From the NCBI RefSeq assembly GCF_030028105.1, contig NC_092402.1, forward strand, positions 50,304,527 through 50,368,526: 64,000 bases of DNA, written 5' to 3'. Made by a program: the position numbers and the translations under genes. Positions 24,301 to 30,300 of this stretch are shown piece by piece. Every line of letters begins with the position of its first letter. Positions within the stretch are counted from its first letter, which is position 1. The notes under the pieces were generated by a model. It was not told the DNA's origin. It worked only from the letters and a program-made list of their open reading frames with translations, and ran no database searches. The stretch comes from Mobula birostris (lineage: Eukaryota).

Positions 24301-27300
24301 TTGAGGGGACTTATTCAAACTGGAGGTCTGTGATTAGTGGTGTTTCACAGGGATCTGTGCTGTGACCTCTGCTATTTGTGATGTATATAAATGACCAGGA
24401 TGAAATTGTAATGGGTGGATTAGTAAATTTTTCAATGATACAAGGATTAGTGGCATTGTGGATAGCGTAGAAGACTGGCAAAAAATACAAAGGGATATAG
24501 ATCAGTTACAGATAGGGGCAGAGAAATGGCAGATGGAGTTTAACCCAGACAAATATGAAGTGTTGCACCTTGGAAGGTGTCCTGTGGGGGGGGGGGGTAA
24601 TCTTATTTTGATTGTTGAAAGTTGCTTCTGTTGCGATTAGTTAGTTTAGAAACTGCAGTTGCTTTTCCCATTGGATAGATGCCTGGTGTCCAGTTTCAAA
24701 TATCCTAGGTATACAAAACAGCATGTGGAAGGGGCTTGTTCTCTTCTTTTTTTGACGATTGGGAAGGTATGCTGTGCATGCACTTTTAACTAAGTATGTT
24801 TATTGAATGTATGTATTTTTTGTTGAATACTCAGCTTTGTGGTGTTTCTAACTCGGGGAAACATGAATGCTTGGTTGATTTTTTAATGTTTGTAAATAAA
24901 TGATCAATATTCCTATCCAAAGTCAATGCATTTCCTGTCTCACTTGCTGGACCCGTGAACCTGTTTCAACATTACATTTGATGCTGTGAGCAGTGTATAG
25001 CTTTTTGAGCAAAATGCATTTCTTTAAGAGGTTATTTAAAAGAGTGGACCCTCCATATGAGAGATGAAAAGCCCCAGGGTGGACAGATAACAGTGAGGAC
25101 TTTGGAACTCTCACTAACCTACTAATGGGTTATGGGATACTGGTAGATTGGTCAGACCAGTTAGATGTCGCCAGGGTTAAAATGGGACATCACATTGTTT
25201 CCATACTTAAATCATTGGGTTTTCCCAGCCAGAAAGAGAGCCGATGGCTTTCTGGCTTTTTGCAGCAATTGTAAGACATCAATATAAAACTATAGCGAGC
25301 CTTAAGAATGAATTCAGAGATCTCAGACAGCACTGCATTATTCTGCGTGAATCACTATTGACGGCTCAGAGTAGGGCTACGAAATTAGAAGAATATACAG
25401 ATAGCCTGTCGGCTAATGAAAGCACACGATTCAGAGGCCCCTCGAAAGGGCAATTGGGAACCTGATTCCGTTAAGGTTCGAGCCACGTTGAGACGGGGCA
25501 ATGATCCTACCGTGGGGCTGGGAGATGGAGATATCCGGCCGGATGATGAAAATGAAGACAGAGTAGAGTGGAACCCTCGGTTGAATCCTCGAAATGATCG
25601 CTTTGTCCCTTGTGTGTCCGGAACAGTACAGACCAGTCCAGTGATTACACATTACTACACCTGCCGCGAGGGGCATTGGTCTGCAGATTCATCCTCTCTG
25701 GAGGGGAAGGGAAAGAGGCTCAGGTATGTACAGGGGTGGTGTACGAACACCTTCGAGGCAACAAAGCTCAGAGAATTCTCCACGAAGGAATTAGCAAGTT
25801 TAGGGGATAGGTACAGACAAAAGGCTGGGGAGTCTTTGACCGCGTGGTTATTGAGGATATGGGGGGATGGGGAGGGTTTACCGGAGTGATCCTGTCCAAC
25901 AGAGAGGTAAGTGCTTTAGGGAGCCTATCATCCCAACATGTGCTCAATAATGCCTTGAGAAGAGTGCTTGTGTCCCCTGAGCGTAGTGCATCACTATGAA
26001 TTCAGGCAACAGCAGCAGTTAAACTTGGGTATCCCACTCTAACTGAATGGAACTTAAAACCTCAAGAGGAGTGGGACACAGCAGAGGAGGGTACTAAAGT
26101 TCTATGCCAGTGGGCTCTTATCACAGAAATATACCACAATAGTGGTATCTCACCAGAGAATGTTAACTTAACTTTTAGAATGATAGGACACGTGGTTACG
26201 ATTGCAGTTTTCCCAATAAAATGGGTAGTGTTGTCTTTAATAGCACCAACTTTTGATCATGCTACAACAATTCAATTATTACAAGGTTTAAGAGCATGTA
26301 GAAGAGGATGCCAATAGCAAAGTACAGAACTTAGATAAGCAGATGGGAGTGGGGGATCCCACATGTCCCGTAAAGAAGTGCTTTTAGCGTTGCTTAAATC
26401 TGGGGTTCAGGAGAAGCAGGTAAATGGGGTTTGTACCCCCACCTCCTACGCAATGTGGAAATACTGTCAGGAGGAGCAAAAACAAAAAGGAAGACTATGG
26501 AGGGAGAAGGGTCATTCTTCAAGTCCTCTCTCGATAAAGGTTCCTTTTGTCCTCTGCCAGATACCTCATATTCCATTCAGGGTTCCCTGCAAAGGATATC
26601 AGCTAACATACACCAGCAGTGGGAATCAGGGGGTGGTTAATACATTTGCTCATCATTGTGATAGGGAGGGAACCATTCAATCTGCATCCTCTTCCCTATA
26701 AATACAATGCCAATGATTCGAATGCAGAGAAATGTGGGGGGGGGGGGTGTATGTGTGTGTGCACGCGTGCGTACGTGTGCATGGCCTTTCCCTTTAAGAG
26801 TCTGAACGTGTTGGGCCCCACCTAGTTTCCTTAACAGTTGTTCTATGACAAGTGCTGTTTCTCTGAAAAATTAACTGTCAGTTTTAAGTTTTTGCAGTTC
26901 CATAGGAAGTTTTAGGAGTACAGCCTTGTCTTTATTTTGTGTTCTAATCTGTTACTTTGTTTCTTGTTTGTTTAGTCAGTTACTTTGTTTCTTGTGTTTT
27001 TAAATCCTGTTATGTGTTTATTGTCTTAATGTTACTTGTTTCTCCATAGCTTTGGATGGCGTTTGAATTTGCACACTGGACCAATGGGTCAGATTGATGA
27101 ATTTACAAGGAAAAGACTGTTGGCAGACATTATCTGGCCCCTTAAGCTTTGGCATTCTGATTTGGGGGAGCTGGGATGTAGTAGTCTATTCCAGCCAACC
27201 TCAACCGAAAGTATGGCAACAGCCTTAAGGGACTTGAGTCTTAATAGCTCCTAAAGTGAGTGCTTTAAGGGCTGGTATTTCTTTATGTACCATTTGTATA

Positions 27301-30300
27301 ATTGCAATGTCCTGACGCTTAAAGTGATTTCCCCACCCGACAGTGTTGGTGTAGGTGGTACGTTGAGTACAGGTACAGGGTGCAAGGTGGATGGCAAGTG
27401 ACCAGGAACGTTATCCTGGGATGGCTGTGTCTATGCCAAATGGTGTTGTGAGGCTGGGCACTTGGATGCTGAATGGCATTTACCAGATTTACTACATTTA
27501 CTAGATTGGCAGTTCCTAGGCCTACCCGTGGTTCCCAAAGGGTGGTGCAGTATGTATGCCACCCCAGTGCCCTGGATGAGCACCTTGCCATGCTGGTTGG
27601 TAAGAGGCTTATTACAAAGTCAGAATGTTCTGAATGATAGTATTCCTCAGCATGGTATGACCAGATTGTCCCAGGAACGCATTTTGATGGCCTTAGTTTA
27701 CCTGTTCACAGGGTGGCACTTGTACTGTTACTGGTTAAGAATGCCGCACCTACATTCCTCACGGCATGGGTAACATCACTCACCTAGTTGATCACATCTC
27801 AGTGTACAAGAGTAAGTGGGAGACCAGTTCATTAGTTATTACACTCTGGGGTGGGGCTGGTGGCCTTTTGAGGCAAAGGGAGACTGGTGGACTACTGGGA
27901 GGTGATTATTGTATTACTGCATATTGTACTCTAGCAATTTATGTGCAATTTAGTTGAGGAGGTCATGAGAGTCCTACTAGCCTGAAGGTTGGATCATCAC
28001 ATTCACAACTTTCAAGGGGTGGGGTATCCTGTGGGGTCATGCCTTATTCTGATTGTTGAAAGTCACTTCTGTTGTGACTGGTTAGTTTAGAAACTGCAGC
28101 TGCCTTGGATAGTTTCAAATATCCTGGGTGTATAGAATTGCACGTGGAAGGGGCTTGCTCTCTCTTCCTTTAAGGCATGACGATTAGGAACATACGCTCT
28201 GCATGCACTTTTAACTAAGCATGTTTGTTGGATACTCTGATTTGTAGTGTTTGTAACTTGGGGAACACGAATGTTTGGTTGAATTTTTCCCGTTTGTAAA
28301 TAAATGATTATGATACCCATTTGATGTCAGTGCATTTCCGGTCTCACTTGCCAGACTCACGAACCTGATTCAGCATTACAGTAGGTCAAATACAAAGAGA
28401 CAGTGTTGATGAGCAGAGGGATCTTGGGGTCCAATTTCACAGCTCCCTGAAAAGTGGTTACACAGGTTGATAGGGTGGTTAAGAAAGCATATGGCACACT
28501 TGCCTTTATTAGACTAGTTAGGCTGCATCTGGAGTACTGCATACAGTTCTGGTTGCCCTATTATCGGAAGGATATCGAGGTTTTGGGAGGGTGCAGAAGA
28601 CGTCTACCAAGATGCTGGCCGGATTAGAGAGCATGTGCTACAACGAGGGGTTGGACAAACTTGGGGTTGTTTTCTCTGGACCGGCAAAGGCTGAGGGTAG
28701 ATCAGATAGAGGTTCTTCAGATTATGAGGCATAGAAAGAGTAGGCAGACGGTACTTCTTCCCCCCAGGGTTGAAATATCTTAAACCGGATGGCATACACA
28801 CAAGGTGAGAGGGGGTAATTTAAAAGCAAATGTGAGCAGAAAGACAGACACACATGCACATACACGCCTGGAATGCGCTGTCTGGAGTGGTGGTAAAGGC
28901 AAATACATTAGAGATTTTTAAGATGTTTAGATAGGCACATGGATGTGAGGAAAATGGAAGGATCTGGACATTATCTAGGCAGAAACGATCAGTTTAGTTG
29001 GCCATTTGGTTATGAATTTATTTGGTTTTGCACAATGGGTGGGCCAAATGACCTGTTCATGTGCTGTAATGTCCTATGTTCTTTACTCCTTTACTCCCTG
29101 CTCAACTGAACAGTGATCAATTCAGTCTTGAATCCTTCAAGCAGATCCACAATTACTGACATGGAAAATAGATGCAAGTATGAAGCAATACTATTTGTCT
29201 TGGGTTCTGCAACTATAAAATTGTTTGGTTCACGACCTTAATTGATTTGACAGACTAAAAAAAAGTGGGAAACTACCAGCCAATCCTCTTGGCCAGGTTA
29301 AGTCATCAAGGACAGTAACAAATGGTTCAAAGTGGAGTAGTTTAATCATTTATTACACCCATGATAGGAAAGCAGCTAACTAAAAAATATTTTGATGAAC
29401 AATTTAGTTTAAAAAAAAATTACCCTTTTCCATTTGGTGAATTCCTGCAAGTTAAAAAAAAATAGAATTGATAAATGTTTCAAGATTTTCTTAGTTCATA
29501 TCAACAGAACAAAAACAACATTCAAAGCAGTAAAAGATACTTTGTGCAGACATCATCACCAGATGGATCCAATTTAATAATTTAAAGGAGCATTCCATCA
29601 TACCAACCCTTTTCCCTATCAAAAAACACAAAAATGTCCCTGGCAATTATTTTTAAATGATTTTACTTAGACTGTGCTGCAAACAAAGATGACACCTCCA
29701 ATCAGGGAGGAAGCCATGTACCATCCACGTCAGGACCAGACTCCAAAAAAGTTATTTTCCCGAAGCAGAAGGCCGATAAACGCCTCCACCCATTAACCCA
29801 ACCCTCCATACACCCGAACACCACTACTTATCATTTCCTGTTAGAGTCACCTTATGTATAGACACTCCTGTGCCTTGCATTACTTTATGGACAGAGGACA
29901 TATAAGCAAACCTCATGCATTTATATTTTTTGTGTTATCTTATTTTTTTTGTGCTACATCAGATTCAGAGTAACAATTACTTCATTCCCCTTTACACTTG
30001 TGTACTGGACTTCACTTTCCAGAAATCCACCATCACTTCCTTGGTATCACTGATGTTGAGTGCAAAGTTGTTTTTGCACTGCCACTCAACCAACCTCTCT
30101 CTCTCACTCCTCTCACCTCCTTGTTACCACCCGAGCTTCTGCCAACAACAGTTGCGTCACTGGCAAATTTATAGATGCCATTCCAACCTTCAGTTCCTCA
30201 AAAGTTTGAAGAGGGCACCTGCCTAAAAAGTTAATCAAGATCATTCAAATCAGATCAATCCATTTCCTGGTACTAACAGAATTTGGGGACACATGAAGAG

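Follow-up and report, generated by a model that had tools for sequence, protein, structure and literature searches.

A decayed provirus with two LTRs, gag and an env remnant

A 64,000-nt stretch of the Mobula birostris genome (NCBI RefSeq assembly GCF_030028105.1, contig NC_092402.1, positions 50,304,527 to 50,368,526 of the forward strand; referred to as the window and numbered from its first nucleotide) contains a decayed endogenous retrovirus (ERV) that lies in a STAT intron. A sequence-only reading of the window had described it as a class III provirus without pol and with a layout like that of the mammalian MaLR elements. The provirus proved to be real, with two long terminal repeats (LTRs), a 5-bp target-site duplication (TSD) carrying one mismatch, a primer binding site (PBS), a gag that is broken and, ahead of the 3′ LTR, a purine tract, all of which that reading had noted. 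Its parts are the following:

24573–24577, + strand: left TSD, GAAGG (from the flank reading and a family-level 5-bp test)
24578–24976, + strand: 5′ LTR of 399 bp, TG..CA, with AATAAA at 24895 (from LTR comparison)
24979–24996, + strand: PBS of the tRNA-Ser(CGA) type, 14 of 18 bases (from the match to tRNA-Ser-CGA-1-1)
25014–26640, + strand: broken class III (Fv1-like) gag with an N-terminal coiled-coil region and a capsid-like region, lacking a Cys-His box
26641–27049, + strand: non-coding spacer at the place expected for pro-pol, with a microsatellite and a pyrimidine-rich tract
about 27050–27960, + strand: decayed class I (gamma-type) env remnant with surface-subunit motifs, a transmembrane (TM) cysteine loop and a membrane anchor
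28014–28024, + strand: polypurine tract AAGGGGTGGGG, directly before the 3′ LTR
28025–28380, + strand: 3′ LTR of 356 bp, TA..CA, with AATAAA at 28299 (from LTR comparison)
28381–28385, + strand: right TSD, GTAGG (from the flank reading and the family-level 5-bp test)

The two LTRs are related but diverged (p-distance 0.167, Kimura two-parameter (K2P) distance 0.193, 348 sites), the two copies of the TSD agree at four of five bases, and the PBS begins 2 nt past the 5′ LTR. The gag starts at the ATG at 25014 and is broken by several frameshifts and stops; its end had been put at 26520, while the frame common to the family runs to about 26640. Likewise, the interior had correctly been said to lack protease, reverse transcriptase (RT) and integrase, but the decayed env had been overlooked. 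At 27049 this copy is short of ~275 bp that other copies have, including the env start. It is dead and probably has no effect.

A family of copies without pol

Searching the genome (4.0 Gb) with the LTR yielded 1225 first-look candidates, and with the two interior halves 486 and 496; with 40 scored per search, these counts should be read as minimum values rather than as numbers of copies. From a total of several hundred, a sample of 68 family loci was assembled (60 from gag matches and eight from later picks), and the fetched copies were colinear with the window element at about 70–80% identity. In the 17 copies anchored at both ends, 66 of 85 flank bases matched as a 5-bp duplication, compared with 14/68 at 4 bp and 23/102 at 6 bp (21–23%); seven further copies had no anchor in this test. 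The LTR pairs of nine other two-LTR copies were 0.14–0.23 apart (median 0.17). Moreover, the primer site was nearer to tRNA-Ser(CGA) than to tRNA-Ser(AGA/TGA) in 47 of 52 copies (four tied, one reverse), and in one copy (L074) it was the exact 18-base complement of tRNA-Ser-CGA-1-1, the sequence of which, as used for the primer assignment, is printed in PMC10359600.

Neither Pfam nor pol probes from a relative revealed protease, RT, RNase H or integrase in the six frames of the window interior, and the same four probes found retroviral pol in none of the 68 copies. The probes did match three of these loci, corresponding to two antisense Gypsy inserts and one weak match outside the element. Measured in 34 copies, the distance from gag to env had a median of 754 bp and was at most 1 kb in 27 of them. 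Large inserts that made some copies resemble pol-bearing ones were read as a long interspersed nuclear element (LINE; L011) and as antisense Gypsy elements (L032 and L045). The earlier proposal of a non-autonomous, gag-retaining family is thus upheld, with pol absent throughout the sample and a gag frame free of shared stops (see below).

Class III relatives of the gag

An exhaustive HMMER search with one natural gag frame returned 48 proteins at E ≤ 0.001, among which P0046 was dismissed as an unrelated repeat protein. The best homologue was an "Fv1-like" protein of the electric ray Narcine bancroftii (XP_069772250, E = 1.3e-17), and another "Fv1-like" protein came from the pipefish Dunckerocampus dactyliophorus (XP_054636387, E = 4.4e-5). 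Among 30 homologues looked up, with names as given by their sources, those called Fv1-like came from electric ray, Xenopus, pipefish and cat, and unnamed or hypothetical ones from turtles, snake, frogs, birds, mudskipper and whale shark; none of the 30 was named Gypsy or BEL. The Narcine and Dunckerocampus names are automatic gene names rather than described ERV families, and in the gag tree the Narcine protein grouped with another class III family (L093), not with the pol-less family. No exact Cys-His box occurred in 41 gag copies, two of which gave unrelated one-mismatch matches.

A fold model of the gag from a 53-row alignment reached a pLDDT of 84.5. Among its 50 structural matches considered, 16 were capsid-like, all of them tied with unrelated rows and including Arc, PNMA2, MOAP1 and copia; Foldseek returned no match at E ≤ 0.001. 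A first fold from a family-only alignment had been poor (pLDDT 65, pTM 0.28), and structural searches with it were uninformative. The predicted fold is consistent with a capsid but does not sort lineages.

In the whale shark protein P0029 (XP_020392837.2, named "SDCCAG8 homolog" in RefSeq), the first ~250 residues are class III gag-like; this is probably a gene-model fusion, and possibly an exonisation.

A pol-bearing sister family

The same genome contains a sister family with the order gag, protease, RT, RNase H, integrase and env, each of them disrupted in the copies that were read. Its gag and env DNA is about 65–75% identical to that of the pol-less family in patches, and its LTR matches the 3′ part of the pol-less family's LTR (72% over 109 nt, E 3e-8). 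A primer site of the Ser(AGA/TGA) type was present in 10 of 33 sister loci examined. In the gag tree a single supported group of 18 rows (SH-aLRT 97) contained both families. In the RT tree the sister family belonged to a 98/99 clade with RTs from swallow and crane, apart from the class I-like, foamy-like and Gypsy rows, and one avian RT of that clade (P0044) is fused to a gag of this type. The foamy-like label in this tree stands for best matches in PDB, and the class I-like label for a motif plus an env match. Together with the Fv1-like gag homologues, this placement of the sister RT bears out the class III affinity that had been proposed. Three pol-bearing relatives, each of them decayed, gave no dUTPase match.

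Searches with class III RT and pol remnants revealed several class III groups in this genome. The L093/L095/L129 and L139 groups were rejected as helpers, as they share no LTR with the pol-less family and look too young (LTR pairs of the L139 group are 0.04–0.10 apart). A genome search with Pfam RVP gave 149 matches, of which the three loci with a placed RT fell in a class I-like group.

Taken together, we give a probability of about 75% to the family being a non-autonomous derivative that arose by deletion from an ERV-S-like class III virus and was amplified intracellularly with its own Gag and a borrowed Pol. The parent would be the sister family or its ancestor. Env death and pol deletion would each have happened once, before amplification, and the primer would have changed from tRNA-Ser(AGA/TGA) to tRNA-Ser(CGA). 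The family's own Gag would then have packaged the element RNA, co-assembling with the Gag-Pol of a helper that supplied protease, RT and integrase, and copying would have taken place inside germ-line cells and not by reinfection.

Six further class III elements (L071–L073, L077, L079 and L085) have other LTRs and mostly a Ser(CGA) primer site. In one of them, L085, gag is followed by no more of pol than a short RT fragment, and pol may thus have been lost more than once.

Purifying selection on gag

Across copies (54 and 41), one gag frame was free of any stop common to half of them between 25014 and about 26638, leaving about 540 codons open, whereas the other frames had 19–24 shared stops per half. 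Non-CpG transitions in this frame were distributed, silent to replacement, as 48:38 when shared among copies versus 133:322 when private (p = 5e-6). One control frame showed no difference between shared and private changes, and the other a difference in the opposite direction. Judged from these substitution patterns, gag shows purifying selection across copies. The shared gag variants were linked above the level of 30 permutations, and the linkage was much stronger over the 5′ half, where r2 averaged 0.143, than over the 3′ half, where it averaged 0.056.

This last contrast also fits a mosaic history, in which gag would be a passenger: all proteins would have come from the helper, and the silent excess would have been imported by recombination or be older than the pol deletion. 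Recombination among co-packaged ERVs is described as common (PMC4724089). Nevertheless, we consider a passenger gag unlikely, given that the whole frame stayed open while the adjoining env decayed, that one short gag–env spacer is common to the copies, and that no pol-bearing element was found with a gag this close, the patchy likeness to the sister family included. A Gag maintained for the family's own amplification remains the preferred explanation.

An env already broken in the founders

In a relative with gag, pol and env, it is the env region that is colinear with the 3′ interior of the window element (E 1e-16). The remnant scored 40.4 bits against a Pfam-confirmed env of the same genome, the best of 100 shuffles reaching 21.6, and 26 of 60 loci matched this reference env. 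The reference itself passes Pfam TLV_coat at 2.7e-13 and belongs to a class I-like element, an owner in keeping with reports of class I envelopes in class III ERVs. A PDB sequence search with the env loop gave no real match, and Pfam gave nothing above cut-off on the window's open reading frames and frames. Shared stops were present in all three env frames (22 copies), a premature stop near the env start recurred in 18 of the 20 copies that were read, and in 40 of 40 copies TM carried the same deletion when compared with the sister family. Moreover, the shared env changes, although small in number, had no codon periodicity. By the evidence of these common lesions, env was already broken in the founders of the family.

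Amplification could alternatively have gone through helper-assisted reinfection, i.e., as a defective virus carried in infectious particles with the helper's Env. An env is present in the sister family as well as in further class III relatives within the genome, a helper can enable defective retroviruses to spread (PMC11905727), and use of a helper's Env is compatible with the sequence. Set against this are the family's own env, dead in its founders, and its aperiodic (if few) shared changes, and we regard reinfection as improbable, somewhat more so than a passenger gag. Intracellular copying is retained as the better account.

The env of a class I-like element (L148:7500–9000) is homologous to envs of class III families (L095:1900–3300), and this sequence likeness suggests envelope exchange between classes in this host.

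Likeness to known class III elements

The family has the features of class III at the ERV3/ERV4 grade, i.e., a 5-bp duplication, a gag of Fv1 type without zinc finger and, on the sister family, a class III RT. The ERV-S-like features, namely a tRNA-Ser primer and a class I (gamma-type) env, are present as well. ERV-L proper is defined by a dUTPase in pol and no env; here an env remnant was found, and no dUTPase match in the decayed relatives. MaLRs are defined by a gag-like frame only; here pol is indeed absent but the env remnant is present. The gag-only, MaLR-like layout that had been proposed does therefore not describe this family, which stands nearer to ERV-S, XtERV-S or ERV4 than to ERV-L or MaLR.

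With ERV-S (HERV-S/HERV18) and the ERV3 of birds and crocodilians it shares the class III gag without zinc finger and the serine primer. HERV-S is described with a class I env and without dUTPase (PMC4724089, PMC5753468), and ERV3 and ERV4 are reported to be alike in TSD and zinc-finger state (PMC4299795); the class I-type env, the 5-bp TSD and relatives without dUTPase recur here. In contrast, the ERV-S and ERV3 elements are from amniotes and have pol, while the present family is chondrichthyan and has none, a comparison made without a named ERV-S sequence in the tree. The XtERV-S elements of Xenopus, as described in PMC8278194, likewise combine an ERV-L-type gag without Cys-His box with a tRNA-Ser primer, which is of the AGA/TGA type as in the sister family, and with a short gamma-type env containing a CWIC motif. 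XtERV-S is intact and has a dUTPase, unlike the present family, which is old, pol-less and env-dead and uses Ser(CGA). The ERV4 elements of crocodilians and turtles also have a 5-bp TSD, no zinc finger, no dUTPase and an env (PMC4299795); they are set apart from ERV3 in that source by Pol phylogeny alone, and the present family was compared with them by description.

MaLRs (THE1, MST, MLT1) are, according to PMC10735291, high-copy, non-autonomous and class III-derived, with one gag frame and no pol, as here. They are described there as gag-only and confined to mammals, in contrast to a family with an env remnant and a pol-bearing sister. The best reading is that the family works like a MaLR but is not one, and the likeness is most likely convergent. 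That it is a true MaLR, or alternatively a Gypsy- or BEL-type LTR element with a chance likeness to class III, has been largely refuted and is very improbable. The kept gag, the absent pol and the 5-bp TSD could be read that way, as could the capsid-fold matches to Arc, PNMA2, MOAP1 and copia, which tie with foamy virus. However, a true MaLR does not agree with the env remnant and the mammal-only range. A Gypsy or BEL origin, which the sequence-only reading had singled out as contradicting it if such capsids were the best gag matches, does not agree with the names of the 30 homologues, nor with a sister RT that lies outside the Gypsy outgroup and beside avian class III.

Several observations weigh against a derivative of an ERV-S-like virus moved by its own Gag and a borrowed Pol. 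Regarding the helper and the primer, no pol-bearing copy was found with the family's full LTR or Ser(CGA) primer site, and two exact patterns found no tRNA-Ser(CGA) gene in the assembly. Since sister LTR pairs are more divergent (0.23–0.30 apart at six loci, versus 0.14–0.23 at nine loci of the pol-less family), the sister family looks older and is at most a candidate helper. Regarding the gag, Pfam and PDB sequence searches gave no match, nor did word-index protein searches with one copy (208–664 aa) or with a family profile (24–422 aa). The capsid fold match is weak, its top row being a foamy virus capsid at Z 5.0 (rmsd 4.8, 148 aligned), and gag transversions show no selection signal (shared 3:18 versus private 193:899, p = 1). 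Finally, the 68 copies were chosen by likeness to the window copy, only three of 15 sister RT pieces were long enough for the tree, and that tree was built without named ERV-L, ERV-S, ERV4, SnRV or lokiretrovirus references.

Class III in cartilaginous fish

The sequence-only reading had held such elements to be best known from tetrapods, and one survey, PMC4977317, does report HERVS/L-like sequences from tetrapods, with SnRV- and epsilon-like ERVs from elephant shark. As a general statement this is overstated: PMC11089739 reports 2843 clade III RT loci in six chondrichthyan genomes, where they are the majority; PMC6001957 places class III in a clade, Huo, present in all major vertebrate lineages; and RefSeq holds the Fv1-like proteins of ray and pipefish mentioned above. 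A spuma-like ERV is reported from catshark (PMC10699275).

Titles and abstract starts of the papers listed yielded no description of a class III family without pol from cartilaginous fish, a scope outside which lay Dfam, Repbase, most subscription papers and supplements. The lineage is known in outline, and its pol-less, gag-selected form in cartilaginous fish appears to be undescribed. More tentatively, and at rather less than even odds, the family may represent an undescribed, independent MaLR-like parasite of cartilaginous fish, with its steps visible beside its parent, and the combination of ERV-S/L with a class I env may be an old jawed-vertebrate lineage. If so, the visible steps would be env death, pol deletion, primer switch and the keeping of gag under selection, and ERV-S/L-type viruses with a class I envelope would belong to sharks and rays too, and not be a tetrapod lineage.

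The ERV-S/XtERV-S design, in which a class I env accompanies a gag-pol of class III, is present in cartilaginous fish. MaLRs are among the most abundant ERV relics of mammals, where the upkeep of gag and the mobilising virus are hard to study; a pol-less, gag-selected family beside a pol-bearing sister makes the order of losses and the helper testable by sequence alone. Surveys based on RT are blind to pol-less families. Moreover, many Fv1-like gags occur here in a lineage for which the literature examined describes no Fv1-type restriction gene.

Insertion site and other elements of the genome

The provirus interrupts a host repeat and lies in a host gene:

23900–24577, + strand: left part of a decayed LINE RT interrupted by the provirus, resuming at about 28381–29000
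22124–30808, − strand: interval between two STAT DNA-binding-domain exons at about 30809–30907 and 21959–22123

The STAT exons flank the provirus on both sides on the minus strand, so that the provirus is antisense within a STAT intron. The earlier assignment to a STAT2 intron holds for the STAT gene and its strand, but STAT2 itself is unproven: by best PDB score, one exon matched STAT3/STAT1 and the other STAT1, with STAT2 lower. As a single insertion in a STAT intron, the provirus is probably neutral. Along the minus strand of the window, at least nine STAT exons, covering parts of the coiled-coil, DNA-binding, linker and SH2 regions, extend over more than 32 kb (6209–38444).

The interrupted LINE, which we take to be a CR1 element, resembles in translation the LINE in locus L011. 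The latter is nearly full-length, lies inside a copy of the pol-less family (L011:3421–7490), and has an esterase-like ORF1 and an endonuclease-RT ORF2 open over 922 aa; similar LINEs recur in other loci.

Further ERVs of this genome, in the L091, L110, L131 and L143/L148 groups, comprise foamy-like ones, one group with an RT scoring about equally against murine leukaemia virus (MLV) and foamy virus, and two groups of class I-like type. Finally, upstream of a class III gag-pol on C17 near 13.77 Mb, a tandem array (L100:296–2430) consists of ~78-bp units, every one of which has the end of an LTR and an 18-mer resembling a primer site (26 matches).

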